NCBI RefSeq assembly: GCF_000016745.1
Contig: NC_009483.1
Span: 900,001 to 932,000, forward strand
Reading direction: 5' to 3'
DNA length: 32,000 bases
From: Geotalea uraniireducens Rf4
GTDB taxonomy: Bacteria > Desulfobacterota > Desulfuromonadia > Geobacterales > Geobacteraceae
Below the pieces are notes generated by a model. That model worked only from the letters and a program-made list of their open reading frames with translations. It did no database searches and was not told the origin of the DNA. Positions 5,058-32,000 of this stretch are shown here, one piece after another (position 1 is the first letter of the stretch; every line of letters begins with the position of its first letter). The translations under genes and the position numbers were made by a program.

Positions 5058-5115
5058 TTTCAACCTTCACCAACGACACCATCACATATCACCGCAATAA
5101 ATGGAGAACACCACC

Positions 5116-9435: not shown

Positions 9436-9450
9436 GAATGCAATCTTAAC

Positions 9451-9532
9451 GTAAGGGCGCAATGCTTGCGCCCCTGCTGCAATAACCGGCATTGTTGCTA
9501 TTGCCATCAGGGCGCATGCAATGCGCCCTTAC
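9451..9532. repeat. Inverted pair of related palindromic hairpins (REP/BIME-like) between the dockerin-protein gene and the lipoprotein gene
   Basis: Hairpin 1 is GGGCGCA (9455-9461) / TGCGCCC (9467-9473). Hairpin 2 is AGGGCGCAT (9509-9517) / ATGCGCCCT (9521-9529). Flanks gtaagggcgca... (9451) and ...tgcgcccttac (9532) are reverse complements, so the two copies are in inverted orientation. Confidence 0.6.
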
Positions 9533-9555
9533 AAAACCATCCGGGAGAACAAACG

Positions 9556-10068: not shown

Positions 10069-10200
10069 TCGTGACGCTGGTTGATCGCGAAGAAGGTGGC
10101 CGCGAAAACATCGAGGCGGAAGGGTACTGGCTGAAAGCGCTCTTTGTGAAGTCGGAGCCGGTCGCATAGTACTGTCGCAAGAACAAAACAAGATTGGTGA

Positions 10201-10641: not shown

Positions 10642-10658
10642 GTTTATCTGAAATTGCG

Positions 10659-10687
10659 TTGACACTACCCGGCGACGGGTGTATTTT
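10659..10687 (+). promoter_or_regulatory. Candidate sigma70-type promoter of the STAND regulator gene
   Basis: TTGACA (10659-10664), a 17-nt spacer, then TATTTT (10682-10687), about 100 nt upstream of ATG 10785. Confidence 0.4.
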
Positions 10688-10784
10688 CCGTCCAGTCAAA
10701 AAAGCAAATTCCTATCCCTTTATCCCACATCCAGGCCCTCTGGAGAATCCGTTCAGGTTTAATGGCGAGAACAGAATCAACCCC

Positions 10785-13787: not shown

Positions 13788-13809
13788 AAAACTCACCTTT
13801 TTTAAAAAT

Positions 13810-13844
13810 CCCTATCCTATCCCTATCCTTTTCGATGTTAACTT
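13810..13844 (+). promoter_or_regulatory. Two CCCTATCCT direct repeats with 11-bp phasing plus a -10-like hexamer upstream of the 13903 gene (candidate activator site)
   Basis: CCCTATCCT at 13810-13818 and 13821-13829. TAACTT at 13839-13844, preceded by TG at 13836-13837, lies 9 nt downstream. An A/T-rich tract lies upstream at 13787-13809. Confidence 0.4.
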
Positions 13845-13902
13845 TCTTCCGCAAACCTCAATTCGGTCATTCCCGAAACGATTCCGGGAGAAAGGGTACT
13901 CA

Positions 13903-16900
13903 ATGAAAAAAAATCAGAAGAGAGTTTTCAGAAGATTGCAAAAGTTTTCGACCGGACAGCCCGCATATTTGCGGCTGCTGGTCTGGCCGATCATTGCGCT
14001 GACGCTTGTTTTCGGACAGGCGTTTATTGTATCACCGGCAATGGCCTTGGGGGGCAGTTATACCCCGGCCGTCAGCGCCGGCAACGTCAGCGCGGGCAGC
14101 GCCACCCTGACGTTGAAATTTACCGGGGATTCCTCCACGCTGACCGGGAATTTCACCCTTCTGGCGGGGAACGGCGCCAGTTGCGGCAGCAGCGCTCAAG
14201 TCATTGCAGGAACGGACAGCGCGGACAAAGCAATTGGCGTCGCCGGCAGCGTCGTACTTCGCTCAGGCTCCGTGCCGAATATGAGCGTCGCTACCGATTA
14301 CCCGTACACGGTGGGCAACCTCAGCGCCGCCACCTCCTATACCGCCTGTTTCACCTCCAGCCCAGGTTCTACGCCTGCTTCGGCCAGTTTTAGCACAACA
14401 GCCGCCACCCCCCAGGTAGGCGCCTTCATGGGCACGGCCAGCGACACCGCTTTTACAGGCATTGCTCTCCCTTCCGTCATGGCCATTGCCCCGGACGGCG
14501 CCCCTTACGTGGCCTTCGGGTATTTGACTTCGGGTGGTGTAGCACACAAAGCCACGGTGAAGCGCTTTAATAGCCAGACCAAAGCGTGGGAACCGGTCGG
14601 CGCCGCGGAATTCACCGTCGATGCGGCCAATAGTATCTCTCTGGCCTTTGCCCCGAACGGCGCCGCTTACCTGGCGTCTTCCGACGATAACACCACCAAC
14701 GGAACCAAGGTGATGAGCTTTAATGGCGCGACCAGTACGTGGGAAGCGGTCGGCGCTACGCCCGTCTCTGCCGGCAGCACCGGTTTTAACTCACTGGCCT
14801 TTGCCCCGGATGGCACCCCTTACGTGGCGCTCGTGGAATTTGCAAACGGCGGCCAAGCCAGTGGCTATGTCAAGGTAAAGCGCCTTAACGGTTCGACCTG
14901 GGAAGACGTCGGCGCCCTGCCCGCCGACTACGCCACATACAGCTCCCTGGCCTTTACCCCCAACGGCGGCCTTTACCTGGCGTACGTGAAGACTGCACAC
15001 TCAGGCGCGGACTGGGGCACCGCCACGGTGAAGTTCCTTGCGAACCCGGCGGATCCCGGCGCTACCTGGGCAGATATCAACAATGATCCATCCAGTTCCT
15101 ATATCTACGGCGTTAGCGGCCTCTCCCTGGCTATCGCCCCGAACGGCACACCCCATGTAGCTTTTATGGATGCCGACACACGCTATCCCATAGTGATGCG
15201 CTACCTGAACGGCGCCTGGATCAAGGTCTGGAACGGCAGCGCCAATATAACAGCCGGCAGGGCGGCCGGCATGGGCAACCTGGTCATTGCCCCGGACGGC
15301 ACGCCATATCTGGCGACCGCGGATGAAAACACAGATCGCTCACAAACGCCGCTATTCGGCTTTAACGGCACGGACTGGATTCCTTTCGGCAGCAACTCTA
15401 CCATCTATAATTGGGGCCAGACTGCTCAACCGACCGTGGCCATTGCTCCGAACGGCATACCGTATGTGTTGATTAATGATATTAACACTTTCAACCCCAT
15501 GATAATGAAGGCGAACACCGACCCCATTCTCGCCGGCGTCACTACCGGCGCGGCGAGCAACATCACCACCACCGGCGCCACCGTGGCCGGGACGGTAAAC
15601 ACCACCGACGGCGGAACCACCACGGTTAGCTTTGAATATGGCGCTGACACCAGGTACGGCAGTCACACTACCCCCGTTACCGGCCAGTCGGCCGGCGCGT
15701 CAGCTTCCGCCTCCATCACGGGGCTGTTCTGCGGCGCCACCTACCACTACCGGATCAAGGGAACAAGCAGCCGCGGCCCCGCCTACGGCAGCGACAATAC
15801 CTTTGCCACCTTGGACTGCCAGCCAGGCCCGGCGCTGACCACTCCGAGCGCCAGCAATATAACCGTGGGGGGGGGCGCCACCCTGCAGTTTCAGGCAAGC
15901 GCCGTCAGCACCGGGTATTACACCGTGATGGCGGGGGCCGATGTCACCTGCGGCACCGCCTTGCAAATCAGGGGAGGCAAGGACAGCAACGGCAACACCG
16001 CAGCCATTTCCGGCTCCATGGCGCTGCAAGCCAACACTCCCGCCAGCATACAGTTAAACAGCCTGACCAACGCCGCCTACACCGTCTGCTTTACCGCCGG
16101 CACCAGCAGCACGCTGGCAACCGTTGCCTCGTTCAACCTGCTGACCCGCCCGGATTTCAGCTGGCAGCCGCTCGGTACAGCCGGAGCTTTCAGCGGCGAT
16201 GCGTCATACATCAAACTCGCCATTTCACCAACGGACAACACCCCCTACGTGGTGTTTCAGAATAATGTTCCCGGTGACCCGGATAATGGCAAGGCTGTGG
16301 TGAAGAGCTACAACGGCACATCCTGGAGCACGGTCGGTTCCGGCGGTTTCTCCACCGGAGACGCCTCTTTCATCTCTATGGCCATTGACAGTAACGGTAA
16401 ACCTTATGTGGCGTATCAGGACAGTGGCAACAGCGGCAAAGCCACGGTGAAGTCTTACAATAATGGCACTTGGGGCGAAATCGGGGTTACCGGCGGATTT
16501 TCCTCAGGTTTGGCCCAATACATCTCCATGACCTTTGCGCCGATGGGCAACGTTCCCTATGTGGCATACGCCGACGGCAGCGGCAGCAATAATGGCTCAA
16601 TCACGATGCAAGAGAACACAACCGGCAGTTGGAGCGTAGATGGGACCGGGACCGCCATCTCCGCCGCGAACGCCTCCAGCATCTCCCTGGCCTCTGATTC
16701 ATATTCTCAACAATATGTCGCGTATATTGACGGAAGCGACCTTAACAATAAACAGGTGAAGGTCCGGTACTATTATAATGATCCTGCTTTTCCTCTTTGG
16801 GATAACTACCCGGCGGTCTCAAGCAATTCACTCACCGATCTCTCCAATCTCTCCCTGGCGGTTGCGTCAGACTGCACACTCTACGTGGCATATCTGGATG

Positions 16901-19317
16901 GCGGGCAAATAACGGTGAAGACTCCCTCGCAGAGCGGCCCGGGGTGGAATGAGGTTGGCGCTCTGGCCTCCGTCGCCGGAACCGTTACCTACCCAACTCT
17001 GCTCTTGTCGCCGGATAACACCCCTTATGTGGTGTATATTGATAGCAGCAACGGCAAGGTCATGGTAATGCGTTACACGGCAGGCGCCTGGAGTCCGGTT
17101 ATAGGCGCCACCTCCGGCGGCAGCATAGGAACTGGCCAAAAGCCTTCCCTGGCTTTTGACAAGGATGGCATCGCTTACGTGGCATATTGGGATGTCGCTA
17201 CCTCTAAAATCGTCGTAAAAAAGGCGGCAACCGCTTCCGCAGCCGTGACCGGCAAGGCAGGCAACATCAGCACCTCCGGCGTCACGCTGAACGGCACGGT
17301 GAGCGCCAATGGCGCGGCCACCACGGTAAGTTTCGAATATGGCGCAACCACCACCTACGGCACCACCGTCTCAGCCACTCCAGGTTCGTTGTCGGCGAGC
17401 GACAGCGATGTGGCGGTATCCGCTCACATCACTGGCAGCTTCACCCCTGGCGCCACCTATCACTTCAGGGTCAAAGCGGTGAATCCCGACTTCGTAGATC
17501 CAATCACCGGCAGCGACCAGACGTTTACTGTGCCTAAGATCGACCAGGCCACCCTGAGCGTAACCGGCATCTCCGGCAGCGCCTATTATGGCCAGAGCGG
17601 CATCACCGCCGGTGTCTCCGGCGGCAACGGCAGCGGTGCAGTTACCTACAGCGCCGGTTCCTCCACCGCCTGTTCGGTAGACGCCACGTCCGGCGCAGTT
17701 TCCATAACCAGCGGCAGCGGCACCTGTGCCATCATTGCCACCAAAGCGGCCGACAGCACCTACAACGCGGCCACCAGCGCGGCGGCAACGCTTACGGTTA
17801 CCACCGCGAGCCAGTCCGCACTGAGCGTAACAGGCATTTCAGGTAGCGCCTACTACGGCCAGAGCGGCATAACCGCTGCGGCATTAGGCGGCCTCGGCAC
17901 CGGCGCAGTCAGCTACAGCGCCGGCTCCTCAACCGCTTGTACGGTAGACGCCACGTCCGGCGCAGTTTCCATAACCAGCGGTTCCGGCGCCTGTGCCATC
18001 ACCGCCACCAAGGCGGCTGACGGCAATTACAACGCGGCCACCAGCGCGGCGGCAACGCTTACGGTTACCAGGGCCACCGCCACCGTAACTCTGGGCAGCC
18101 TGACTGCCACCTACGACGGCACGGCAAAAAGCGCCAGCGCCACCACCACGCCGACCGGCAAAACCGTTACCTTCACCTATGACGGCAGCGCCACTGCACC
18201 GGCCAGCGCCGGAAGTTACGCGGTAATCGGCACGATCAGCGACAGCAACTATCAAGGTGCAGCTACCGGTACCTTGGTAATTGCCACCGCCACCGCGCCC
18301 ACCCTGAAAATCTTCGCCCTGGCAGACGGCAGCATCACTAATACCGCCACCCTCAACATCAGCGGTAGCGCCGCCGGTGCAAACGCTATCAAATCCATAA
18401 CGATCAACGGGGTGGCGGTGTCTCCCGCCGCTGATGGCAGCTTCTCGTATGCGGTTACGCTGCAATCGGGCAAAAACACCATTACCACCGTAGCCACCGA
18501 CAACGCTGATTTGACCGCAAGCGACAGCCGCAGCATCATCCTGGACACCACTGCTCCGGCGATCACCATCTCTTCGTTGGCCGATAACAGCGCCCTGGCG
18601 GCCGCCTCGGTTACGATAACCGGAACCGTGGACAAGACAGCAACGGTCCAGGCGACGGTCAACAACGGAACCGCCCAATCCGCCGCCATGACCGGTACCA
18701 GCTTCAGCGTTACCCTGAATCTGGAGGCAGGGAGCAACATCATTGAGGTCAAAGCTACCGACTTGTCTGGTAACAGCACCATGGTCAAGCGTACAGTGGT
18801 TTCCGACACCACCAGGCCGACCCTGGCGATCACCGACCCGGTTCAGGACATGACCACCAATCTGGCCTCCATGACAATCTCCGGCACGGTAACCGATGCC
18901 CTGACCGCCGTCAGCGTCACCATAACCTGCGACGGCAATAGCTACACCTCGCAGGTGGTAAACGGCGCATTCCAGCAGCAGATCAGCTTTACCACGGCAA
19001 AACAGTACGCCATAAGCGTAACCGCCACGGATCAGGCGGGCAACAACGTCACGGCGCAGCGAAACGTAATCTATGCACCGTCTACTCCTACGCCAACGCT
19101 TCCTTCCGGCGACATCAACGGTGACGGCAAGGTGGATATCAGCGACGCCTTATTGGCTTTGCAGATGGCCGTGGGTCTGGCAACCCCCAGCCCAGCCCAA
19201 CTGGCGGCCGGCGACGTTGCCCCGCTGGTGAACGACAAGCCGTCGTCTGATGGAGTTATCGACATCGCCGACGCCATGCTGATACTGGAAAAGGCGGTTG
19301 GGATGCTGACTTGGTAG
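13903..19317 (+). CDS. Giant exported surface protein: duplicated [Cys-pair domain, ~7-blade propeller-like repeat array, Fn3-like domain] module, Ig-like/MBG repeats, C-terminal dockerin
   Basis: RBS GGGAGAAAGGG at 13887-13897 and ATG at 13903; the ORF-track start at 13636 overlaps the regulator gene. Signal/anchor ...LRLLVWPIIALTLVFGQAFIVSPAMA. There are two arrays of ~48-aa repeats (S)LA.AP(D/N)G.PYVA(Y)..D.....(K)..V(K/M).(Y/F)NG..W..VG. Two VSFEYG...TYH(Y/F)R(I/V)K domains. Two 89-aa Ig-like repeats. One MBG/YDG domain (TATYDGTAK). Three ...G.FS..V.L..G.N.I...A.D.AGN...DTT.P domains. Dockerin GDINGDGKVDISDALLALQMAVGL...GDVAPL...DGVIDIADAMLILEKAVGM. Confidence 0.9.
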   Translation: MKKNQKRVFRRLQKFSTGQPAYLRLLVWPIIALTLVFGQAFIVSPAMALGGSYTPAVSAGNVSAGSATLTLKFTGDSSTLTGNFTLLAGNGASCGSSAQVIAGTDSADKAIGVAGSVVLRSGSVPNMSVATDYPYTVGNLSAATSYTACFTSSPGSTPASASFSTTAATPQVGAFMGTASDTAFTGIALPSVMAIAPDGAPYVAFGYLTSGGVAHKATVKRFNSQTKAWEPVGAAEFTVDAANSISLAFAPNGAAYLASSDDNTTNGTKVMSFNGATSTWEAVGATPVSAGSTGFNSLAFAPDGTPYVALVEFANGGQASGYVKVKRLNGSTWEDVGALPADYATYSSLAFTPNGGLYLAYVKTAHSGADWGTATVKFLANPADPGATWADINNDPSSSYIYGVSGLSLAIAPNGTPHVAFMDADTRYPIVMRYLNGAWIKVWNGSANITAGRAAGMGNLVIAPDGTPYLATADENTDRSQTPLFGFNGTDWIPFGSNSTIYNWGQTAQPTVAIAPNGIPYVLINDINTFNPMIMKANTDPILAGVTTGAASNITTTGATVAGTVNTTDGGTTTVSFEYGADTRYGSHTTPVTGQSAGASASASITGLFCGATYHYRIKGTSSRGPAYGSDNTFATLDCQPGPALTTPSASNITVGGGATLQFQASAVSTGYYTVMAGADVTCGTALQIRGGKDSNGNTAAISGSMALQANTPASIQLNSLTNAAYTVCFTAGTSSTLATVASFNLLTRPDFSWQPLGTAGAFSGDASYIKLAISPTDNTPYVVFQNNVPGDPDNGKAVVKSYNGTSWSTVGSGGFSTGDASFISMAIDSNGKPYVAYQDSGNSGKATVKSYNNGTWGEIGVTGGFSSGLAQYISMTFAPMGNVPYVAYADGSGSNNGSITMQENTTGSWSVDGTGTAISAANASSISLASDSYSQQYVAYIDGSDLNNKQVKVRYYYNDPAFPLWDNYPAVSSNSLTDLSNLSLAVASDCTLYVAYLDGGQITVKTPSQSGPGWNEVGALASVAGTVTYPTLLLSPDNTPYVVYIDSSNGKVMVMRYTAGAWSPVIGATSGGSIGTGQKPSLAFDKDGIAYVAYWDVATSKIVVKKAATASAAVTGKAGNISTSGVTLNGTVSANGAATTVSFEYGATTTYGTTVSATPGSLSASDSDVAVSAHITGSFTPGATYHFRVKAVNPDFVDPITGSDQTFTVPKIDQATLSVTGISGSAYYGQSGITAGVSGGNGSGAVTYSAGSSTACSVDATSGAVSITSGSGTCAIIATKAADSTYNAATSAAATLTVTTASQSALSVTGISGSAYYGQSGITAAALGGLGTGAVSYSAGSSTACTVDATSGAVSITSGSGACAITATKAADGNYNAATSAAATLTVTRATATVTLGSLTATYDGTAKSASATTTPTGKTVTFTYDGSATAPASAGSYAVIGTISDSNYQGAATGTLVIATATAPTLKIFALADGSITNTATLNISGSAAGANAIKSITINGVAVSPAADGSFSYAVTLQSGKNTITTVATDNADLTASDSRSIILDTTAPAITISSLADNSALAAASVTITGTVDKTATVQATVNNGTAQSAAMTGTSFSVTLNLEAGSNIIEVKATDLSGNSTMVKRTVVSDTTRPTLAITDPVQDMTTNLASMTISGTVTDALTAVSVTITCDGNSYTSQVVNGAFQQQISFTTAKQYAISVTATDQAGNNVTAQRNVIYAPSTPTPTLPSGDINGDGKVDISDALLALQMAVGLATPSPAQLAAGDVAPLVNDKPSSDGVIDIADAMLILEKAVGMLTW
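17554..18087 (+). repeat. Tandem duplication, 2 x 267 nt (89 aa Ig-like unit)
   Basis: LSVTGISGSAYYGQSGITA...AVSITSGSG.CAI.ATKAAD..YNAATSAAATLTVT occurs twice. Positions 17761-17803 are identical to 18028-18070. Confidence 0.85.
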
Positions 19318-21603: not shown

Positions 21604-22161
21604 ATGAAAAGGGACATCACACAGACGCTCGTCCGCGAGCACCGGCTGATCCTCCGCATGCTGGCCGTTTTAGAGCGTAACGCTCTGGCCACCGGCGCAG
21701 GAACATACTCCAACTACCGCTTTTACCTGGACGGGGTCGATTTCATCAGAAATTATGCCGACCGCTTCCACCATGCCAAGGAAGAGGACGTGCTCTTCGA
21801 GGCGCTGGTGAAAAACGGCATGCCCAGGGAAAACAGCCCGGTGGCTGCCATGCTGATGGAACATGAGCAGGGGAGGGCCTACGTGAAGGCCATGGAACTG
21901 GCGGCGTTGCTTGCCCTGTCGGGTGAGCCGGGTCAGGATGGGACTATTGCGGAAAACGCCCTCGCTTACGTGGAGCTTTTGAAAGAGCATATCGCCAAGG
22001 AGGACGACATCCTCTATCCCTTGGCCGAGCGGCTCATACCCGATGCGGCTCGCGATGCCGTCATTGCCGGTTACGAGGCTGCCGAGGCCCGATCAACGGA
22101 CGGTTTTGAGAGAAGGTATGATAAGATTGTCGCTGATTATGAGCGTGAGGGGGCCTGTTAG
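21604..22161 (+). CDS. Hemerythrin HHE cation-binding domain protein
   Basis: RBS GGAGG at 21591-95, 8 nt before ATG 21604. Motifs [24 protein letters not shown] and [14 protein letters not shown]. The previous stop at 21599-21601 lies 2 nt before the ATG, so translational coupling is likely. Confidence 0.85.
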
Positions 22162-22577
22162 TGTAGTTCCTCTCCTGTCGTGGTCATCACCAGCTTCCCA
22201 TGTTTTACCCCTTTTACCCCGATCAGTTCATCGGCAATCTGCTTCACCTCACGGGCTTTGCCCCGCACAACCAGGACCTCCAGGCAGTTGTGGGCATCAA
22301 GGTGCACGTGAAGGGCAGAGATGATCTGGTCATGGTGAGTATGCTGATGCTCGGTCAGCTTGTCGGACAGGTCCCGCACGTGATGATTATAGACAAGGGT
22401 GACGGTGCCGACGGTCTCCTCTTCTCCCGCTTCCCATTTCAGTTCCACCAGCGATGCGCGGATCAGGTCCCGAATCGCCTCGGAGCGGTTCATGTACCCC
22501 TTCTGATCGATCAGCTTGTCGAAGCTCTCCAAAAGTGTCTCGTCGATTGATATGCCGAATCTAATGGTCTCTCCCAT
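22158..22577 (-). CDS. nikR: Nickel-responsive transcriptional regulator NikR
   Basis: N-terminal ribbon-helix-helix ([19 protein letters not shown]...[13 protein letters not shown]). C-terminal metal-binding domain with His/Cys ligand pattern (VYNHH...EHQHTHHD...HVHLD..NCLEV). RBS GAGGAG 6 nt before the ATG. Confidence 0.9.
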
Positions 22578-22596
22578 CTTTTGCTCCTCTGATCTT

Positions 22597-22628
22597 GAAT
22601 CATCAATTTGTCAAATATTAGATGATTC
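22597..22628. promoter_or_regulatory. Perfect 8-bp inverted repeat with 16-bp spacer just upstream of nikR (candidate NikR operator)
   Basis: GAATCATC (22597-22604), N16, GATGATTC (22621-22628), located 20-51 nt upstream of the nikR ATG. A TAATAT -10-like hexamer (minus strand) lies in the spacer. Confidence 0.45.
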
Positions 22629-22839
22629 GGGAGCAAAAACAAACATAAAATGTGTGAGGCACAAATCAGGACAGGTGCGGGATTGCCACTAACTCGACTA
22701 CAGCGGTTATCATCAACAGGTTCTGATATCGTTTCATGCCTACACCTCCTTTCCTGGCACAACATTCATCTCCTGCAATTCCCTGAGGTTGAAGCGGGCC
22801 AGGGAACTAAAGGAGCTTGACGTTCATCCATATCTGTGC

Positions 22840-23559
22840 CTACCGCAGTTGGAACTGTACCGGCATGACGATCTCTGCAGCCGCGGGTGGTCTCGGGAAG
22901 GGTGCAACGCTTTTGACCGTTTCCATGGCACTGTTATCCAGCGCAGGATAGCCACTGCTCTCTTTGACTTGAATAGAGCGGACGCTGCCGTCTTCAGCGA
23001 CTATGAACACAAGCACTACTCTGCCGCTCCACCCCATCCGTCTGGCTACCAGAGGATAAGAGAGCCGTTTTACGATCAGGTCGCGGATATAAGTAAAATG
23101 CTCATTGAGATATCTTTGCTGGGCCTTTTCAGGAGTCATCCCGCCACCACTTGTCTGTGCTGTCCGTGGCGCAGCAGCGACAACTGGTATCCCCTGGTTT
23201 GTGGAAACCTGCCTGGACACATTTTCCGTTACAGTTCTGCTAGCCAGAGGTGCAGATGGTGTCGGTGCTGCATTCTGGCTGACAACCGGGGTCGGCTGAG
23301 ACTCCGGTTGTGTCTGCGCCTGCTTTCGTGGTGTCGGCTGCGCTGCGACAGCCGGCAGCTTTTGGGGGGCAATCGGCTGTTTGGGAGCGGCAACCGGCGG
23401 CGTTGATTTTCCCCGGAGCTGCTCAGGACGCGGAGATGAGCCGAGGGTAAAATCAATGCTGACCGGCGGGGTGTGCTTGACTCTGTTTACAGTAAATTCC
23501 AGCATCAGTGCCAGCATCCCCAGATGCACGGCGAGAGAGGCCATACACCATTTAGCCAT
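22840..23559 (-). CDS. tonB: Energy transducer TonB
   Basis: N-terminal TM with SxxxH motif (MAKWCMASLAVHLGMLALML), a Pro/Gln/Ala-rich spacer, and a TonB C-terminal domain (YPLVARRMGWSGRVVLVFIVAEDGSV..IQVKESSGYPALDNSAMETVK...PFP). AAGGAG lies upstream. An alternative start is at 23595. The ORF-track start at 23850 overlaps the upstream gene. Confidence 0.85.
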   Translation of the reverse strand: MAKWCMASLAVHLGMLALMLEFTVNRVKHTPPVSIDFTLGSSPRPEQLRGKSTPPVAAPKQPIAPQKLPAVAAQPTPRKQAQTQPESQPTPVVSQNAAPTPSAPLASRTVTENVSRQVSTNQGIPVVAAAPRTAQTSGGGMTPEKAQQRYLNEHFTYIRDLIVKRLSYPLVARRMGWSGRVVLVFIVAEDGSVRSIQVKESSGYPALDNSAMETVKSVAPFPRPPAAAEIVMPVQFQLR

Positions 23560-23611
23560 ATGTGCATCACTCCTTGCTGTCTGTAGACGGGGCATACAAT
23601 AGGTTCTCCGA

Positions 23612-26600
23612 TCATCTGTTTTTCCGGAAACCTGTTGCCACCAGCCCCAGCACGACAATAAATCCCAGTATGAACAACCAGGGGATCGGGGCCGATGCCG
23701 CGCCGGCCGCCGGTTTACCGCTTTCCTGCATTTCAAACCCTTCAACCTGTTTGCCCTGCGTCGCTTTGCCGCTCGTCCCTTGGGTTGCGGCCTGCTGCGC
23801 AGACTTCTGCGCCGCCTGCTGCCGTCCCTGTTTGCCGTTCTTCCCGGCATCGGGCTGTTTCATGTTCTGTAGCGCTTGCTCGAAACCGGAAACCAGCGAT
23901 TTCAGCCCCGGCACCGATAACAGGGTTGTGGTTGTGAACTTCGTCAACTGCGGGTTGTTGCAGGTATGGTCGCAACAGGCAAGACCGACCTCTTGAACCG
24001 ATTTGGCGTATTCCTCGGCCAGTTTCTCGACTATTTTCTGATCCGGCTTCCAGTACTGCTTGCGCACTGTCTCCAGCATACGTGCGACGACAGACTGGTA
24101 GGCCCACATATTCTTGGCCTGGCGGAACATGTCCTTGATTCCCAGACCGTTTCTGTCAAGCACATATGTTTCATGCATCTCCTGCCACTTGGCGCTGTCC
24201 ACCGTCTCCGGCACCGTCACCTGCCATCCCCAAAGATGTTCCGTCACCTTGTCGATGAAGCGCGCTCCGGCGTACCCATCCTTCATCATGGCCTTGATCC
24301 ACTCCGGATTGAGATAGCGGGAACGCATCTCCTGCCCCATCACTTTCTCCAATGTTTCCTGTTTTGCCTTGTTCGGATTGGTCATGTCGGTGACGTAAAC
24401 CTCGGGAGTCGCGCCGTTCACGGCGCGGACCGCCATGGCGGTGCCCCCCAGATACTGGTAGAAGTCGTCCGTATCCAGTATGCCGATGGTGTTGGTGGAA
24501 CGGCTGTGGATTGCAATCTTGCTGCCGGTGAGGGCGTTTTTGAACAGCGCCGTGCCGATCTCCTGCCCCTTATGTTCCACCTTTTCGCCCCAGAAACCTT
24601 GGCCAAAGGGATGACCCATGCGCATGAAATAGACGTCTACCACCTGTTTTTCGTTATCCCACTTGTCGGAAGCAACGATCACCTTGTCTAAGCCGGTGCC
24701 GTACGTGCCGGGTGGTTCGGTAAATATGCGCACCGATGCCAGCCGACCGGCCTTTTCCTCCGCCATACCTTTATCGAGTAATATCTGCTTGGTACGTCTG
24801 GTATTGGATCTGATCAGGTTATCTTCTTCATCCTGATCACGTGCAACCGTCACCGCGCTGTCCAAGAGCGCCATCAGGTTGGCGAACAGGTCGCGGTACA
24901 GGCCGGAAGGAACGATGGTGACGTCAATCCGGCCACGCCCCAGCTCTTGCCTCGGAATCGGCTCGACCCCCTTGACCCGTCCCCGCTCGTCCCACTGGGG
25001 GCGTACCCCCATCAGATACATGATCTGTGACTCCATCACCCCTTCATGACGGATGGTTTCAGTAGCCCAGATATTGAAGGTCAGTTTGTCGGGGTATGCT
25101 TCATGGCGCTTTTTGTACCCCTCGATCAGCTCCTGGGCCAGTTTTGTTCCGGTCGCATAGGTGCCCGGAGAGGGGACACGGGTCGGATCAAACGCATAGA
25201 AGTTCTTGCCGGTGGGGAGTGAGTCCGGATTGCGAATCGGATCGTTGCCGGTGCCGGACGGGATGTATTTCCCCGCCAGGGCGGCCACAAAAGAATCGAG
25301 TTCACGGGGGCCGCTGGCGGCGATTGCCGCTTCCAGGGCGGCGATACGCTTCTGACGTTCTTCAGATTTCAGACTTTTCTCAATGGCGATAATCGCCTCG
25401 GCGGTGCTTTTCAGATACTTCCCATCCGGCGATTTGCCGAAAGTATGCAGCCCAAAGGGGGTAATCTTCTCGCCGATCTCCCTGATGTAGTCGTCCAGTT
25501 CCTCCACCTGTTCCATAGTGGTGATGGCCGACAGTTTCAGGTCCGTCAGGATGCCCCCCTTGCGGGCCAGCCGGTTGATCTCCTCCAGCTTGCTGCCCGC
25601 CAGTTGGGGTGACTTCTCTTTGGCATCGTTGTAATCGCTGATCAGCGCCGCCAGCTCCTTCAATTCGCGGTTGATACCGGCCTTGTCAAAGGGGGGAGTC
25701 ATATAATCAATCACCACCGCCATGCCGCGCCGCTTGGCCTGGAGCCCTTCGCCCACATCATCCACGATGTAGGGGTAGATATTGGGAAGGTCCTGAATCA
25801 GCAGTTCCGGCGGATCTTCCTGTGTGAAGCCGACCTCTTTGCCGGTGAGCCATTCCTGGGTGCCATGGGTGCCGATATGGGCCACGGCGTCGGCCTTGAA
25901 GCCGCGTTTCAGCCAGAGATGAAAGGCGATATACTGGTGATGGGGCGGAGTGTGGATATCATGAAAGAGCTTTTTGACATCCTGTTCCAATCCGCGCGAC
26001 GGCTCCGGTGTGAACAGAATGTTGCCGTATTTGACCCCCGGCAGCACGATAAACTTTTTCCCGTTCGGGTCGCGCCAGGTCATGATGGCGGCGTCATCCG
26101 GCTCGCCCCAGCTTTTCACCACATCCTTGCGGAAGTTTTTCGGCAGCTCCATGAACCAGCTTTTGTAAACCGCCATCGGGATCAACACCGCCCGGCCGCT
26201 GCGGGCCAACCTGTCAATCTCCGCCGGAGCCCAGTTGCCGATATTGCGCCCAAAGGCATGCACCTCTTCAAACAGCTTCTCTTTGGAGATCTCTTCGTTT
26301 CCTGTGGTATAGCCTTCGCGTTTCAACCTGCTGAATATCTCAAAGAGGCTTTCCGGCAGCACATTCAGGTAGGCAGCACCGATATTCTGTTTCCCCGGCG
26401 GGTAGTTGTAGTAGATGATGCCGATATTCTTGTCGCTGTTCGGTTTCTGTTGCAGCGTCAGCCAGCGTTTAACCCGTTCAGTCAGCCGTTCGATCCGCTC
26501 CGGGATAGGGCGGGTCTCCATGTATTCCAGTCCGGTGGCGGGGTCAACGCCCCGCTCTTTCGAGGAGACCACCGTCGGCTGAATGATACCGGCCATTTCC

Positions 26601-27583
26601 GGCAGTCCGATGGTTGAGCTGCGCTCGAAGATGTCCAGCCCGACCGGGGATTTTTCCCACTCTTCCCGTGACTGGGAGTGCAGGGTAACGGCATCGATCA
26701 CCGGCACACCAAGGCGGGTCAGAATCGGCACCGCCCGCTGTGGTGTGATGCCGACTTTGAGCGATACGCCGATCACCGCCTGCACTCTGCTTTTTCCGGT
26801 TTCGTCAAAAAAATACTTTTCCACCGACAGTTCCGAGGGGTAGCCGTAGACCGGCAGGACATTCATTCCCTTGCGTTCCAGCGAAGCGATCAGGCTGTCG
26901 AGCAGCGCGGTGTCGTCGTTATCCACCAGGTTCCGGTAAAAAGGGATGCCGATCCAGGGGCCGGGGCGGTGGCGATACAGCTTCAGGTAGTCGGCAAATG
27001 TTTCAACGGTACGCTTGCCATCTTTGAGATATAAGCCGAAAGCGGGAACTCCCTGAGGTTCTTGATACTCAACCGCGATGCCGCACTCCCGTTTCAGCAG
27101 CGAGAGGATCATGTTAACAGCATTTTCCAACCCTCCCTCTTGTTGATAACGGCTAACGATGGAGTCGTTTTTCAGGCCGAGGGCGCTGTCGTCCTTGCTG
27201 AACATCCCACCCACGGCATACACATTCATCCCGGCCTGCTGCATGGTGAGGATGGATGGCTTCAGCAATTCGAGAAAACGTCGATCCATGATATGGACAA
27301 TGCCGAAACCTTTTGATCCGGCGGGATAGTGTGCCTTTGCTCCGTTTTCGCGCTCAAGCCCCGCCTTGGTAACCACCTCAAACGTTACCTGGTGTGCTAG
27401 TTCCGGATGTTTCAACGTGATGGCGTGAACCGCCTGTACCGCCAGACGGGAGTTGTAATCGCCAAGCATCAGCCTAACCGTGAGCGGCGTTTCCGCAGCC
27501 AGGGCGGCAAGAGGAAGCGCCAGTAGCAGAACTATTGCCGAAGCAGCTTTCAGGATCGTGGCAAACAGGCTATTCCGGCACAT
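23612..27583 (-). CDS. CobN/Mg-chelatase large-subunit family protein with N-terminal signal peptide and C-terminal membrane anchor (HmuS-like)
   Basis: 1323 aa. Contains the CobN-type motif AHIGTHGTQEWLTGKEVG and is family-like along its length. N-terminus MCRNSLFATILKAASAIVLLLALPLAALA-AE looks like a Sec signal. C-terminus has a Q/K/A-rich linker followed by IPWLFILGFIVVLGLVATGFRKNR. It overlaps the upstream gene by 14 nt. Confidence 0.85.
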   Translation of the reverse strand: MCRNSLFATILKAASAIVLLLALPLAALAAETPLTVRLMLGDYNSRLAVQAVHAITLKHPELAHQVTFEVVTKAGLERENGAKAHYPAGSKGFGIVHIMDRRFLELLKPSILTMQQAGMNVYAVGGMFSKDDSALGLKNDSIVSRYQQEGGLENAVNMILSLLKRECGIAVEYQEPQGVPAFGLYLKDGKRTVETFADYLKLYRHRPGPWIGIPFYRNLVDNDDTALLDSLIASLERKGMNVLPVYGYPSELSVEKYFFDETGKSRVQAVIGVSLKVGITPQRAVPILTRLGVPVIDAVTLHSQSREEWEKSPVGLDIFERSSTIGLPEMAGIIQPTVVSSKERGVDPATGLEYMETRPIPERIERLTERVKRWLTLQQKPNSDKNIGIIYYNYPPGKQNIGAAYLNVLPESLFEIFSRLKREGYTTGNEEISKEKLFEEVHAFGRNIGNWAPAEIDRLARSGRAVLIPMAVYKSWFMELPKNFRKDVVKSWGEPDDAAIMTWRDPNGKKFIVLPGVKYGNILFTPEPSRGLEQDVKKLFHDIHTPPHHQYIAFHLWLKRGFKADAVAHIGTHGTQEWLTGKEVGFTQEDPPELLIQDLPNIYPYIVDDVGEGLQAKRRGMAVVIDYMTPPFDKAGINRELKELAALISDYNDAKEKSPQLAGSKLEEINRLARKGGILTDLKLSAITTMEQVEELDDYIREIGEKITPFGLHTFGKSPDGKYLKSTAEAIIAIEKSLKSEERQKRIAALEAAIAASGPRELDSFVAALAGKYIPSGTGNDPIRNPDSLPTGKNFYAFDPTRVPSPGTYATGTKLAQELIEGYKKRHEAYPDKLTFNIWATETIRHEGVMESQIMYLMGVRPQWDERGRVKGVEPIPRQELGRGRIDVTIVPSGLYRDLFANLMALLDSAVTVARDQDEEDNLIRSNTRRTKQILLDKGMAEEKAGRLASVRIFTEPPGTYGTGLDKVIVASDKWDNEKQVVDVYFMRMGHPFGQGFWGEKVEHKGQEIGTALFKNALTGSKIAIHSRSTNTIGILDTDDFYQYLGGTAMAVRAVNGATPEVYVTDMTNPNKAKQETLEKVMGQEMRSRYLNPEWIKAMMKDGYAGARFIDKVTEHLWGWQVTVPETVDSAKWQEMHETYVLDRNGLGIKDMFRQAKNMWAYQSVVARMLETVRKQYWKPDQKIVEKLAEEYAKSVQEVGLACCDHTCNNPQLTKFTTTTLLSVPGLKSLVSGFEQALQNMKQPDAGKNGKQGRQQAAQKSAQQAATQGTSGKATQGKQVEGFEMQESGKPAAGAASAPIPWLFILGFIVVLGLVATGFRKNR

Positions 27584-27908
27584 AGATCACCTTCCCGTCT
27601 TTCAGTTGATACGCAGTGCCCAGCCGTTCCCCTTCGCCGGAAAGCCGCTTGTCCGCCACCTTGCGCACCTTGATCTCTTTGCCCTTCTTGGTGATGACCT
27701 CGATTCCACCGTTGGCGGTCTTTTTGGTGATGGTTACCTCCGATTTCGGGTCCATCAGGTCGAGCATGTTGTAGGCCATGAACAGGGCGATCATCATGCT
27801 GACGATAAAGACCACGCTGACGTCGAACAGGTTGGCCACTCCGGCGATTGGATCTTCCAGCGGCTCATCATATTTTTCAAAGCGGTTGCGCCGTTTAAGA
27901 AATCTCAT
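27570..27908 (-). CDS. Small single-pass membrane protein, DUF2149-like (ExbD-like topology)
   Basis: 112 aa: a short charged N-terminus, TM LFDVSVVFIVSMMIALFMAY, then a ~60-aa soluble beta-rich tail. It overlaps both neighbours by 14 nt. The family name is from memory. Confidence 0.7.
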   Translation of the reverse strand: MRFLKRRNRFEKYDEPLEDPIAGVANLFDVSVVFIVSMMIALFMAYNMLDLMDPKSEVTITKKTANGGIEVITKKGKEIKVRKVADKRLSGEGERLGTAYQLKDGKVIYVPE

Positions 27909-28491
27909 CGCCTTCTTCCTCCCTGGCCGACAGTGGGCGACTGCTGGTATATCTCCTGAGCATCAACTCGGTCTGGTATTCCATTTCTCGCATGTCGGCC
28001 CGCACCCATTTTTCCTTCACCAGCGACATCAGGTAGGCTACGACGCTACAGGCCAGACCGACGACAACGGTGGTAAAGGCGGTCACCATACTTCCGGCCA
28101 TCTTGGGCATATCCCCCTGCGCCAGCGAAGAGAGGGATATCCCCATCGGAATCAGGGTTCCCATCAAACCAAGAGCTGGACCGACCCGGATCACGAAGCG
28201 GATCTTGTCCAGGGATTTGACCAGGGCCAGCTCGGCCGTTTGCAGGAGACGCTCCATGGCGATATCCAGATTGGACTTCTCAGGTGCGTCCGCCAGTGCT
28301 GCGGTCAAGCGTGCCCGGTAGCGTTCCAGCGGGGTGGATACCCCCTGTCGCCGTTCCAGCCACTCCCGCAGAAATCCGCCAATGAAGATGGTGACCCATC
28401 CAACCAAAAGCACCAGCCCGGCAACCACCGGAAACAGCAGAACCGACGAAATCAGATACAGGACGGTTTCAAGACCAGCCAATATGTTCAT
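27895..28491 (-). CDS. MotA/TolQ/ExbB proton-channel family protein
   Basis: 198 aa with three TM segments and signature VGPALGLMGTLIPMG...AFTTVVVGLACSVVAY. ATGA start/stop overlap with the upstream gene. Confidence 0.85.
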   Translation of the reverse strand: MNILAGLETVLYLISSVLLFPVVAGLVLLVGWVTIFIGGFLREWLERRQGVSTPLERYRARLTAALADAPEKSNLDIAMERLLQTAELALVKSLDKIRFVIRVGPALGLMGTLIPMGISLSSLAQGDMPKMAGSMVTAFTTVVVGLACSVVAYLMSLVKEKWVRADMREMEYQTELMLRRYTSSRPLSAREEEGDEIS

Positions 28492-29183
28492 TTGTTACCT
28501 CCTTTGTGTGTAAAAAAGCCGACCAACAACGCTGTCAGCAGCAGCCCCAACAGAAACATGCCGCCTGTGCCGTTTCCGGCAACAGGCGGCAGCTCCTTGA
28601 GAAATGAGCTGTACATCCCTTTGGCCTGCTCAACTTTGGTCGGCAGAAAGAGGGAGGCGATGAAATAAAGTCCGATCGTGATCATGACCAGCCCCAGGGA
28701 GGGGAGTGAACGGCGATTAGATCCGGTTCTGGAGACAATCATCACCACCAGCGTCATGCTGCTGAAAACCCCGCCCAGCACCAAGCCAACCGCCCAGGGG
28801 AGCAGCGGGAGGCTGTTGAGGGCGCTCCAGGTCGAGAAGGTCATGGCGGTCAGGCAGACCGGGCAGGGGATCAACAGTGCCAAGGGAGAATCGTGAGGGG
28901 ATGTTCCCCCCTGTCTCTTGATGATAAAAAGCCCCCAGAGGATCATGCCCATGGCCATAACCATGTGCAGCCAGCGCCCTCCTTTCAGCAGAGGTTCAAG
29001 CAGCGGCAACAGGCGCTCGGCCAGGAGGGCGATCAGCTCAAAGAGCGCCAGATAGAGGCCGATGGTGAACGCTACCCCTTTTCGGGAAACCTGCCCGTAT
29101 CCCAAGCCAGCGCCGACCTTGACGGCAAAGATTCCCAGACTGAAGAGGGTGCCGCCGACCCAGAGCGCTATATTCAGATCCAT
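28488..29183 (-). CDS. Polytopic (6-7 TM) membrane protein, DUF2162-like predicted transporter
   Basis: 231 aa and highly hydrophobic, with LLIPCPVCLTAM (CPxC within a TM) and a His (SPHDSP) loop. The family name is recalled from memory of CobN/MotA/DUF2149 neighbourhoods and was not verified. Confidence 0.65.
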   Translation of the reverse strand: MDLNIALWVGGTLFSLGIFAVKVGAGLGYGQVSRKGVAFTIGLYLALFELIALLAERLLPLLEPLLKGGRWLHMVMAMGMILWGLFIIKRQGGTSPHDSPLALLIPCPVCLTAMTFSTWSALNSLPLLPWAVGLVLGGVFSSMTLVVMIVSRTGSNRRSLPSLGLVMITIGLYFIASLFLPTKVEQAKGMYSSFLKELPPVAGNGTGGMFLLGLLLTALLVGFFTHKGGNK

Positions 29184-29196: not shown

Positions 29197-31425
29197 TCAG
29201 AATTTGAAACTCAACTCGCCGTATGCTGAGCGTCCCGGCGCCAGATAGTATGAGTAGTAGTGTTCATCAAGCAGATTGGAGACGGATAGTGAAGCAGTAG
29301 CCCATGAAGTGATCCTGTAGCGCAGTTTCAGGTCAACGGTGAAATAGGGGTCGTAACTCCCCTGAACGCCGTTGACCGTATCGATGTTGGTGTCGTTGCC
29401 ATAGCGCTTGCCCACATAGCGACCGGTGGCCAACGCTCCGAAGTCGCCGTATTCCAAATCGGCGCCGACATTGAACATATGTTCCGGTACATCGGTCATC
29501 CGTTTGCCGGTAGAGGCGGGGGCTGCGCTGTTTTCCTTGATGGTGGCATCGGAATAGGTGTAGTTGGCAAACAGTCTGAGCTGCTTGCCGAATTTCTGTT
29601 CCGCCTCCAGCTCCACCCCTTTGCTTTCCGCCTTGCCGGCGTTGACCTTGTCCTTCCAGGTTGCCGTGGTTGATGTACTGTAGATCAGGTCGCTGATGTA
29701 GTTTTCAAAATAGGTGGCCGAAACCCTGGCTCCCTCCCAGAGACCCTGGCTGACACCGGCATCCCAAGAGATGGTTGTTTCCGGCTTCAGATCAGGATTT
29801 CCGGCATAGGTTATTCCGCTGGAAGTCGTCCAGGTGCGGTAGAGATCATATGCGGTGGGAGCGCGGAACGCCTTGCCGCCGGAGAGTTTGAGGGTGGTCT
29901 GGTCGAACGGTTTATACACGATGGCCCCTTTGGGGCTAAAGGAAGAGGCGCTGCGGGAATCATAATTTTTGGGATAGCCACTGCTTCCAACCTGATTGGC
30001 GTAGCCGTCAAAGGTTTCCCACCAGTCCTGCCGGAAGCCGAAGAATAGGGTCAGTTTGTCCAGCAGCATGATCTCGTCCTGGGCGAACAGGGCGAAGGTC
30101 CGGTCGGTTCCCTTGGATTTGTAGGTCATGGCCGCTGTAGAATTTTCATCCTGCCAGTTGGTGAGGGTATGCTCCTTGGAATGGGCCCAACCGCTACGGA
30201 AGGCGCCGCCGAAGGTCAGAAGGTGGCGATCCAGCAGCGGCAGGGATGCCTGAAGATCGGCGTTGATCGCCCCGGCCGGGGTATCGGACAGTTTGCCCGG
30301 GCCACCGCTTCGGGTGGCGCTGTTGGGTGGAGCTGCCGAGGTGGGGGTGGAGCCCCAACTGCTGGCCTGATACAGATAGCCGAGGTTCAGTTTAAGTTTG
30401 ACCGGAGAAAATGCTGTTTCGGCGGCCAGGCCGTACAGATACTGGTCGCTGCCACCGTTTGCTCCCAGGAAGGAGGCTTCCCGTACCGTGCCGTAGGTCC
30501 AGACCTCGGCACCGGAGCTGTTGCGCAGATAGGTTGCCGGGTCATCATAGAAATATTCACCGCTTGACTTCAGGAAGGTGAACCTGACTCTGGTGTCCGG
30601 AGAAAACTCGTATTCTGTCTTGACAGTAAGGTTGTCCTGCCAGGTGCCGTTTTTACCCTTGTCGCCGATCCGGTAGCGGGCTGCTCCGCTGTAGTCGGTA
30701 GTGTTACTGTAGCCGGTTATTCCGGCGGTCGGCTGGCTGCTCTGGACGTTGAAGTCGCTGCGGTAGCCGTTCGTGCCTACATAGTCGTTATGCAGATAGA
30801 CCTTAAATTTCCCCAGAAACTTGTCGCCGTAGGAAACCGCCACGCGGCGGGAGTTCTCCATACCGTTGCCGCTGTCTAGGGCAGAACCATAGCCACCGGT
30901 AAGGGTAAATTCCCGTTTTTCCGGCATCTGGGTAATCAGATTAACCACACCTCCCATGGCATAACCGCCGTAGAGGCTGGAGGCCGGTCCCTTGACCACC
31001 TCGATCTGTTCGAGACTGCCCGGTGCTATCCCCACAGAGAATACCGATCCTGCATAGGGGCTGTTGAGGGTGATGTCGTCCAGCATCACCAGTGTGCGGG
31101 ACTGCCCCGGAATACCCCGCAGGGTAATGGCCGACATCCGGTCCATCATCCCTTTGCCGCGGGTCGTAATCACACCGGGTATGATGTTGATCGCCTCATC
31201 CACCGTGGTAATATTCCGCTTATCTATCTCCTCCTTTGTTACAACGGAGACACTGCCGGGGGCGGACTCCAGATCTTGCTCGGTCCTGGTGGCTGTGACC
31301 ACGATCTGCTCCAGCCTGGTTTCGCTTCCTGCCGCGTTGCCTGGCGGTTCCGCCCCGATGGCGGCGCTCCCCAGCAGGCAGCCCGACAAAATCCCTGCCA
31401 ACGTTACGACTTTTTTTCTCTTCAT
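29197..31425 (-). CDS. TonB-dependent outer-membrane receptor (riboswitch-controlled; BtuB/HmuR-like role)
   Basis: Signal peptide MKRKKVVTLAGILSGCLLGSAAIGA. TonB box LEQIVVTATR. Plug motifs (PGVITTRGKG, IRG) and a beta-barrel ending ...YGELSFKF. RBS GGGAGA at 31436-31431. Confidence 0.9.
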   Translation of the reverse strand: MKRKKVVTLAGILSGCLLGSAAIGAEPPGNAAGSETRLEQIVVTATRTEQDLESAPGSVSVVTKEEIDKRNITTVDEAINIIPGVITTRGKGMMDRMSAITLRGIPGQSRTLVMLDDITLNSPYAGSVFSVGIAPGSLEQIEVVKGPASSLYGGYAMGGVVNLITQMPEKREFTLTGGYGSALDSGNGMENSRRVAVSYGDKFLGKFKVYLHNDYVGTNGYRSDFNVQSSQPTAGITGYSNTTDYSGAARYRIGDKGKNGTWQDNLTVKTEYEFSPDTRVRFTFLKSSGEYFYDDPATYLRNSSGAEVWTYGTVREASFLGANGGSDQYLYGLAAETAFSPVKLKLNLGYLYQASSWGSTPTSAAPPNSATRSGGPGKLSDTPAGAINADLQASLPLLDRHLLTFGGAFRSGWAHSKEHTLTNWQDENSTAAMTYKSKGTDRTFALFAQDEIMLLDKLTLFFGFRQDWWETFDGYANQVGSSGYPKNYDSRSASSFSPKGAIVYKPFDQTTLKLSGGKAFRAPTAYDLYRTWTTSSGITYAGNPDLKPETTISWDAGVSQGLWEGARVSATYFENYISDLIYSTSTTATWKDKVNAGKAESKGVELEAEQKFGKQLRLFANYTYSDATIKENSAAPASTGKRMTDVPEHMFNVGADLEYGDFGALATGRYVGKRYGNDTNIDTVNGVQGSYDPYFTVDLKLRYRITSWATASLSVSNLLDEHYYSYYLAPGRSAYGELSFKF

Positions 31426-31449
31426 GATTTTCTCCCGCGAGTATTTCGG

Positions 31450-31600
31450 CTGGAGCGGTATTCCGGCTCAGGGCTTCCTACTTGCCCGCCTTCCCAGGAT
31501 TTTTCCCAGTGGCTGTTTCGCCTTGCGGCGATGGGCTTTCGTTCCCATTACGGCTGCGGGGCAGCGGGGGAGTTGCACCCCTCTTCCTCGACTCCATCCG
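31450..31600 (-). promoter_or_regulatory. Cobalamin riboswitch, proximal copy (B), abutting the receptor RBS
   Basis: The minus-strand RNA contains AGGAAGAGGGGUGCAACUCCCC, CCCGCAGCCGUAAUGGG, GCCACUGGGAAAAAUCCUGGGAAGGCG (GCCACUG from 31513) and the B12-box variant GAGCCGGAAUACCGCUCC (31469-31452). The RBS lies 16 nt further on. Confidence 0.8.
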
Positions 31601-31614
31601 TTTGAAAAAGGCAC

Positions 31615-31650
31615 AAAAAAAGTCCGCATATGCCGAAGCAATATGCGGAC
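31615..31650 (-). terminator. Intrinsic terminator between the two riboswitches (expression platform of copy A)
   Basis: The minus strand reads GUCCGCAUAUUGC-UUCG-GCAUAUGCGGAC: a 12-bp stem with one bulge and a UUCG tetraloop, followed by U7 (31621-31615). Confidence 0.85.
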
Positions 31651-31717
31651 TTTTCGTATTCAAAGTCTGATAATGGTTTCACTCTCCCTTTACCACGGGG
31701 AATTGTTGAGTGCTAAG

Positions 31718-31888
31718 ATCATGGCAGGTCTTCTGGCTCGCGATTCATCCTCCGGGCGCCTTCCCGGTCTTTCGACCAGTGACATAATGCCCTTCGTCCT
31801 CGCTTACAGCGGCGGGTCCGCGGGGGAATGGCTCGGTTTGAGCGGCACCCCTCTTCCCTATCAAGCCCTTGCGGGCACCGTGATCCGA
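31718..31888 (-). promoter_or_regulatory. Cobalamin riboswitch, distal copy (A)
   Basis: The minus-strand RNA contains GGUGCCCGCAAGGGCUUGAUAGGGAAGAGGGGUGCC, CCCGCCGCUGUAAGCG, GUCACUGGUCGAAAGACCGGGAAGGCG and the B12 box GAGCCAGAAGACCUGCC (31739-31723). Confidence 0.9.
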
Positions 31889-31928
31889 TATTCAGTTTTT
31901 GTTGATATTTACTAAATATTGCATGATC

Positions 31929-31958
31929 TCTTTAGCACAACACTACATCATGTGTCAA
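31929..31958 (-). promoter_or_regulatory. Candidate promoter of the riboswitch-led operon
   Basis: On the minus strand: TTGACA (31958-31953), an 18-nt spacer, then TAAAGA (31934-31929), about 40 nt upstream of riboswitch A. The -10 is weak. Confidence 0.3.
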
Positions 31959-32000
31959 TCAGCTATTGTTTAAACAGATTAACAACAGTTGCGCGACCCG

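Follow-up and report, generated by a model that had tools for sequence, protein, structure and literature searches.

Two cobalamin riboswitches in series, probably acting first on transcription and then on translation, precede an Hmu-like receptor operon in Geotalea uraniireducens Rf4

Tandem adenosylcobalamin (AdoCbl) riboswitches were reported in 2006 (Sudarsan et al.), and 26 such doublets were catalogued in 2022 as 'pseudo-cooperative' (Sherlock et al., PMC9481103), a steeper, more digital response being the standard published interpretation of these tandems (PMC9481103). A 'bi-mechanism' layout, in which a terminator comes first and control of the ribosome-binding site (RBS) second, was described in the same survey for pairs of S-adenosylmethionine (SAM) riboswitches, SAM-II/SAM-V and SAM-II/SAM-II, the authors not having evaluated all tandems (PMC9481103). 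Among deltaproteobacteria, tandem thiamine pyrophosphate (TPP) riboswitches of Desulfovibrio thiSGHFE have been noted since 2004 (PMC545781). In cobalamin riboswitches, loop L5 (consensus UCCCG) forms a kissing interaction with loop L13 (CGGGA) of the expression platform, which governs formation of the terminator or of the RBS hairpin (PMC10327014, PMC7367189), and the features of the Cbl-I and Cbl-II classes have been defined (PMC7367189). Here, we analysed a 32,000-nucleotide stretch of the genome of Geotalea uraniireducens Rf4 (NC_009483.1, positions 900,001–932,000; hereafter the window), in which the leader of an operon headed by a TonB-dependent receptor gene consists of two complete cobalamin riboswitches in series, termed A and B in their order of transcription. 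Since both tandem B12 riboswitches and the two-level layout have already been described, the window locus is a further member of a known group; it is possibly already among the 26 published AdoCbl doublets, and the Geobacter genome papers do not mention the tandem. Our analysis adds the heterotypic composition of the pair, a modular series of its units among relatives, a variant aptamer that has no P2 hairpin, and an Hmu-like target operon. The elements of the leader, in 5′ to 3′ order, are as follows:

31929–31958, minus strand: candidate sigma70-type promoter, with a −35 element TTGACA (31958–31953), an 18-nt spacer ending in TGC and a −10 element TAAAGA (31934–31929)
31706–31897, minus strand: aptamer A, of canonical Cbl-I layout (RF00174, 109.9 bits)
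31680–31712, minus strand: P13-like hairpin, with outer stem CACUC/GAGUG, inner stem CCC/GGG and loop CGUGGUAAA (31697–31689)
31648–31667, minus strand: GACUUU hairpin, candidate antiterminator (GACUUU-GAAUACGA-AAAGUC), overlapping the base of the terminator 5′ arm
31615–31654, minus strand: intrinsic terminator of A, with stem 31654–31622, UUCG loop 31637–31634, one bulged U and a U7 tract at 31621–31615
31437–31611, minus strand: aptamer B, variant without P2 (RF00174, 68.5 bits, model positions 22–44 deleted)
31431–31439, minus strand: platform of B (CGCGGGAGA), with the Shine–Dalgarno (SD) sequence GGGAGA at 31436–31431 and the AUG at 31425–31423, 5 nt after the SD

The minus strand from 31897 to 31423 was read directly, then scanned against all Rfam families and rescanned with lax filters. 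Two independent matches to RF00174 (gathering score 31.5 bits; full length, model 1–189) were obtained, neither of them truncated: copy A at 31897–31706 (minus strand, 109.9 bits, E = 6e-27, model 1–189) and copy B at 31611–31437 (minus strand, 68.5 bits, E = 4e-15, through model position 189). Both lie far above the gathering score, confirming the original prediction of two full aptamers in this leader, which had proposed an RF00174 cmsearch and expected two independent minus-strand matches from it. The conserved core, comprising the B12 box, an L5 with CCCG, the GCCACUG...GGGAAGGC internal loop and a closing P1, is present in A and B alike, and both copies align to approximately model positions 95–160, the large P6 extension (P7–P11), including G(U/C)CACUGG...GGGAAGGCG. 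Direct reading also recovered the motifs by which the two aptamers had been recognized, save that P3 of copy B starts with GAGGAA and not with GGGAA. Two further details needed revision: copy B has no P2 hairpin, and the distance from copy B to the RBS, given earlier as 16 nt, is 15 nt when the SD is measured from where the B12 box ends (31452) and 10 nt when it is measured from where P1 ends (31447). The gap between A and B measures 94 nt, within the 300-nt limit of the published tandem definition. From these features, both A and B are predicted to bind corrinoids.

Receptor homologues were collected, and their loci, taken from genomes, metagenomes and assemblies (designated by L numbers), were scanned with Rfam; the metagenome scan yielded 19 loci, several of them duplicating loci from other sources. 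The leader composed of A, terminator and B was found at nine further receptor loci (L081, L084, L087, L023, L083, L097, L096, L109 and L094, the L023 sequence being cut inside A), whose receptors are 56–88% identical to that of the window. Other relatives carry A with its terminator alone (L088, L107 and L108), B on the RBS alone (L102) or two B units (L082 and L072), and the existence of these loci argues that each unit is a self-contained riboswitch able to serve the operon alone. Mean identity is 84% among A units and 80% among B units, compared with 56% between A and B, which argues that the two are old separate lineages, both long kept, and that the tandem is heterotypic; a recent duplication as the origin of the A/B pair was rejected on the same figures. 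In L082 and L072, the two B units are at least 90% identical and did arise by recent duplication. Between the window and L081 the leaders share 86% identity, and compensatory changes were seen in helices of A as well as B. The A + B combination has been retained as a pair over considerable divergence.

Copy A carries the P2 module of Cbl-I, a loop–stem–loop between P1 and P3, as the hairpin GCCC-GCAA-GGGC (31876–31865), which aligns to model positions 22–44. Its L5 is ACCCG (31817–31813), its B12 box is GAGCCAGAAGACCUGCC (31739–31723), and the large P6 extension is present; the A-type homologues score 99–131 bits against RF00174. A 14-nt hairpin insertion (GCUC-loop-GAGC) was observed in L4 of aptamer A (31851–31828), where it covaries to GUUC/GAAC in L081. 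The same insertion occurs in the B copies of L081 (1873–1895), L087, L083 and L097 and is absent from copy B of the window, and for this reason we consider it an indel-prone peripheral element.

In the consensus fold of five homologous platforms, aptamer A is followed by the P13-like hairpin, a variable linker, the GACUUU hairpin and the terminator. The intrinsic terminator with a UUCG loop and U7 tract that had been predicted after copy A is present: its folding energy is −24.5 kcal/mol (z = −6.1; none of 200 shuffles reached this), it appears in the unconstrained minimum free energy (MFE) structure of all 11 A-type units, and it shows compensatory changes in its upper stem in the L083 group. 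A consensus promoter/terminator scan of 31000–32000 reported neither a terminator nor a promoter, the terminator probably having been missed because of its bulged U. The outer pairs of the P13-like hairpin are all retained in the consensus fold. Candidate partners of L5 in A are CG(U)GGU of the P13 loop (31697–31692) and GGG at 31688–31686, and in L107 and L108, where A stands without B, the P13 loop is CGGGGGACU (CGGGGG), a contiguous complement of the L5 CCCG. The conserved GACUUU/AAAGUC hairpin is the best antiterminator candidate; it forms in 6 of the 11 A-type units when folds are truncated before the terminator 3′ arm, and it covaries between L107 (GGACUUU) and L108 (GGAUCUU). Two other antiterminators were tried and rejected. 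The first, a pairing of GCGGAC (31821–31816) with GUCCGC of the terminator 5′ arm, has a conserved 6-mer, is a weak match and never appeared in MFE or truncated folds; the second, of the P. megaterium type and sharing the P13 3′ strand, fails because P13 and the candidate hairpin do not overlap.

Aptamer B is closed by P1 CGGAUGGAG (31600–31592)/CUCCAGCCG (31455–31447), has a short J1/3 where A has its P2 module, and retains an L5 (CCCCG, 31561–31557), the large P6 extension and the B12 box GAGCCGGAAUACCGCUCC (31469–31452). Model positions 22–44 are deleted in all 14 B-type units, with 3–4 nt of J1/3 in their place, so copy B was not filed as canonical Cbl-I; with no P2 and a large P6 extension, it fits neither Cbl-I nor Cbl-II cleanly. 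RNAalifold recovered the B-type helices from 12 units, with both-sided changes in 13 of 37 pairs, most strongly in P1. In L109 (1245–1335) and L102 (1030–1170), the P6 extension of the B-type aptamer has a distal hairpin enlarged by insertions of about 60 and about 125 nt, respectively, and both aptamers still exceed the Rfam threshold (41.2 and 36.1 bits).

B-type aptamers always end 10–12 nt 5′ of the AUG; a GGGAGG-type SD always adjoins, 5–7 nt before the AUG, and there is no terminator. In the window, the sole complement of L5-B downstream is CG(C)GGG (31439–31434), and the SD begins with its GGG. Of the 14 B-type units, 13 keep the motif YYCG-N-GGG(A/G)GG, on which the best L5 duplex always falls. 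CG(C)GGG is a candidate kissing or pseudoknot partner of L5-B that would occlude the SD. With a terminator after A, and B adjoining the SD without one, the division into transcriptional control by A and translational control by B that had been put forward finds support in the predicted structures.

The candidate promoter would place the transcription start site approximately 25 nt upstream of aptamer A, and A and B are probably carried on a single transcript with a leader of about 495 nt. Matches to TTGAC(A/T)-N16–18-TAnnn(A/T) were found 25–61 nt upstream of the first aptamer in nine leaders and never between aptamers. No credible or conserved open reading frame (ORF) was found between the aptamers; a small ORF was considered there and rejected, as only mechanical TTG/GTG frames overlapping the RNA structures are present. 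Short ORFs were observed elsewhere, between riboswitch and receptor gene, in L082 (2670–2760, 28 codons, MLTIFLIYSP...) and in L088 (2891–3004, 37 codons, MDPTERIFSRITIFLIKD..., overlapping the receptor start as ATGA). The two share the peptide TIFLI and the DNA sequence ACCATTTTTCTCATC and have no counterpart in the window. A separate observation concerns L094, where the 150-nt spacer from terminator to B holds, at 1085–1094, GATTGACACA, which is the sequence of the −35 region upstream of A in the window (31960–31951) and hints at past shuffling of promoter and riboswitch modules by recombination.

Based on these data, we consider it likely that A and B are two independent corrinoid OFF-riboswitches in series, A acting on transcription and B subsequently on translation. 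The computations established directly that two aptamers and a terminator are present, that B lies next to the SD, that both modules are conserved and covary, and that each unit also occurs separately elsewhere; the proposal builds on these points. Binding of a corrinoid to A would allow the terminator to form co-transcriptionally, such that most transcripts would end at 31615. Transcripts that read through would carry B, which would act on the finished mRNA: on corrinoid binding, its L5 (CCCCG) would base-pair with CG(C)GGG at the SD, blocking ribosome binding reversibly. Expression would then approximate the product of two escape probabilities, and because these multiply, the proposed series would provide tighter and steeper repression than a single switch. 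As in a 'bi-mechanism' tandem, B could still shut off mRNAs made before B12 rises. The direction of control, termination, translational repression, the kissing-loop partners and the antiterminator are predictions of this model.

Several observations weigh against the serial OFF-switch model. No riboswitch was found in approximately 25 receptor loci, and these include close orthologues of the window receptor (L001, L098, L093 and L090, with 77, 74, 70 and 69% identity). The A/B arrangement is thus not essential to the operon, and its regulatory input turns over quickly within Geobacteraceae. For both A and B, the duplexes of L5 with the platform are no better than in dinucleotide shuffles (p mostly 0.3–0.7), because any G-rich SD complements CCC, and the complement of L5-B is not statistically separable from a plain SD; the L5 partners named above should therefore be read as compatible assignments and not as independent evidence. 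In unconstrained folds of the A-type units, the terminator prevails in every case over possible antiterminators. The GACUUU/AAAGUC hairpin is only 6–8 bp long and does not overlap P13, for which reason the model of P. megaterium metE cannot be transferred directly to A. Finally, the promoter is a pattern match that a stricter consensus scan did not find, and the window extends no further than 103 nt upstream of A.

We further weighed whether the two aptamers read different signals. In this alternative, A and B would accept different corrinoids and form a two-input gate with NOR logic, in place of one signal read twice; the inputs, either of which would shut off the operon, could for example be complete base-on cobamides on one side and incomplete or base-off corrinoids (cobinamide, for instance) on the other, or else AdoCbl as opposed to methylcobalamin and hydroxocobalamin. 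Cobalamin riboswitches are known to differ in selectivity, from semiselective to promiscuous, and their peripheral elements can shift the preference for the upper ligand. Against this alternative, none of the cobalamin riboswitches tested to date is specific for a single corrinoid, and since the determinants of selectivity are dispersed, a difference cannot be predicted from sequence. The structural classes of the two copies do differ, A having P2 and B combining a short J1/3 as in Cbl-II with the P6 extension of Cbl-I, and their maintenance together as old separate lineages would suit two distinct inputs; against this, both retain the large P6 extension, the element that forms the adenosyl pocket in Cbl-I, and the near-identical B + B tandems of L082 and L072 show that tandems for the same ligand have been selected in this family.

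The divergent B12 box of copy B had been offered as a hint of another ligand. When the Rfam columns were mapped, the A-to-G change in the B12 box of B was found to pair with the U-to-C change in C(U/C)GUAA, this pair being U–A in 11 of 11 A-types and C–G in 13 of 14 B-types. The middle base of J6/3 differs as well: all 11 A-types have the consensus AGA, and the 14 B-types have A-N-A (U in 7, G in 4, C in 2 and A in 1); the remaining A/B differences in the B12 box fall in the P1 and P3 strands. As it comprises a compensated pair and a freely varying base, the divergent box is not evidence for a different ligand, and the hint was dropped. The middle base itself, invariant in A-types and free in B-types, is a point in favour of two inputs, and J6/3 (31463–31459 in the window and homologous positions) suggests different constraints next to the ligand in the type without P2. 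Taken together, we regard it as unlikely that a Cbl-I aptamer and an aptamer without P2 have been kept as a pair to read different corrinoid states, as a NOR gate over the extracytoplasmic HmuS-like system encoded downstream.

A second alternative is that the tandem is an evolutionary leftover of neutral module shuffling, with only one of the two switches mattering today. Orthologous operons are preceded by a very patchy assortment of riboswitches (A, B, A + B, B + B or none at all), as would be expected in such a case, and the window promoter fragment between terminator and B in L094 is suggestive of module recombination. Both modules are nevertheless intact in every A + B locus across receptors of 56–88% identity, the terminator and helices of each aptamer show compensatory changes, and both copies score far above the Rfam threshold; a decaying copy would first lose P1, L5 or the B12 box. 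A leftover thus appears very improbable.

Riboswitch-terminated small RNAs occur in other bacteria, as in the Listeria and Enterococcus cases, and A with its terminator might similarly yield a short B12-controlled RNA, for example a trans-acting or decoy RNA, while B and the operon would be transcribed from a second promoter. The 150-nt spacer after the terminator in L094, with its −35-like element, could accommodate such a promoter. In the window, the U7 tract is separated from P1 of B by only about 14 nt, with no promoter-like site there, and at L088, L107 and L108 A with its terminator is the sole leader element, which indicates action in cis; we give this two-transcript arrangement hardly any weight. 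The weakest alternative, a cooperative double aptamer in which A and B interact over one common platform as in glycine riboswitches, has nothing specific in its favour beyond two aptamers on one leader, and can be practically dismissed given the complete terminator between A and B, the platform that each aptamer has of its own, the occurrence of each alone in relatives, and a spacer ranging from about 14 to about 150 nt.

The serial OFF-switches would act on an operon of conserved gene order in the relatives, whose genes in the window, assigned by Pfam unless stated otherwise, are the following:

29197–31425, minus strand: TonB-dependent receptor, 742 aa, the first regulated gene (Pfam Plug and TonB_dep_Rec_b-barrel; AUG at 31425–31423)
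22158–29183, minus strand: the rest of the operon, made up of the genes below
28488–29183, minus strand: DUF2162
27895–28491, minus strand: MotA/ExbB-like
27570–27908, minus strand: DUF2149
23612–27583, minus strand: HmuS-like CobN-family protein, 1323 aa (signal peptide and C-terminal anchor seen in the translation)
22840–23850, minus strand: TonB
22158–22577, minus strand: NikR

Among PDB structures, the CobN-family protein matches the HmuS haem de-chelatase 9d26 most closely (E = 2e-149) and true CobN less well, and its signal peptide and C-terminal anchor argue that it is extracytoplasmic. The gene set matches the hmuRSTUV haem system of Bacteroidota (PMC11681262, PMC10434189), from which the window operon differs in gene order and in the TonB and NikR genes appended to it. 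Because of this Hmu gene set, we consider the target of the switches to be an Hmu-like extracytoplasmic metal/tetrapyrrole acquisition system and not a BtuB orthologue. The HmuS-like protein is thereby found in a presumably B12-repressed operon of a B12 producer. In L088, a NikR-box-like GTTAC-N13-GTAAC was observed at 2390–2460, approximately 570 nt upstream of the receptor start and upstream of the A-type riboswitch, with further GTAACAC copies nearby, which suggests dual control by nickel and B12 at that locus. Replacement of the riboswitches by NikR boxes in the riboswitch-less relatives was considered and rejected, as the L088 box was the only clear one and none was found in those relatives or in the window leader. 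Elsewhere in the window, the first 19 kb are taken up on the plus strand (1363–19317) by a series of very large ORFs of 1191, 1444, 1042 and 1893 aa.

The locus offers a clean, well-conserved natural tandem of terminator and then RBS control within one riboswitch family. The relatives, in which orthologous operons are preceded by a lone A, a lone B, A + B or B + B, provide a comparative series for the contribution of the second switch, which could show its effect on dynamic range, steepness and late shut-off. The variant without P2 and with a large P6 extension is an exception to the Cbl-I/Cbl-II scheme. An Hmu-like receptor/de-chelatase operon under predicted B12 control in Geobacteraceae also gives a lead on CobN-family periplasmic proteins outside haem acquisition. 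If the two-input alternative were true, the leader would govern an HmuS-like chelatase or de-chelatase and a TonB receptor handling cobalt-tetrapyrroles, and not a plain B12 importer.

Compared with described systems, the window locus shares with the AdoCbl doublets (PMC9481103) a single leader holding two full riboswitches that belong to one class, no ORF between them, a gap below 300 nt and a terminator after the first. It differs in that the survey left the second platform unworked, whereas here the second platform is predicted to be translational and the aptamer sub-types differ. The SAM-II/SAM-V and SAM-II/SAM-II tandems likewise place a terminator first and the RBS of the same ORF second under the same ligand family, although they belong to another ligand class, and the window aptamers both match RF00174 and do not represent two named classes. 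The TPP tandem of Desulfovibrio thiSGHFE (PMC545781) is also a same-class tandem in a deltaproteobacterial leader; both of its units end in terminators, whereas the platforms in the window differ.

At the level of the single units, copy A resembles the P. megaterium metE riboswitch (PMC10327014) in the CCCG of L5, the P13-like hairpin downstream and the terminator. In metE, however, the P13 3′ strand is the antiterminator 5′ strand, whereas in the window P13 (31712–31680) and the candidate antiterminator (31667–31648) are separate. Copy B resembles the translational riboswitches of E. coli btuB and env8HyCbl in being located immediately at the RBS of a gene for a TonB-dependent receptor and in having an L5 complementary to the RBS region, as is the case where RBS hairpins are controlled by kissing loops, but it has no P2 module or clear P13 stem, and its pairing would be nearer to a plain L5–SD pseudoknot; furthermore, the window receptor is part of an Hmu-like operon and not a BtuB orthologue. 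As in the 'hybrid' riboswitch of B. subtilis yvrC (PMC7367189), copy B mixes class features, in the opposite combination: yvrC has a P2 module and a small P6 extension, whereas copy B has no P2 and a large P6 extension.

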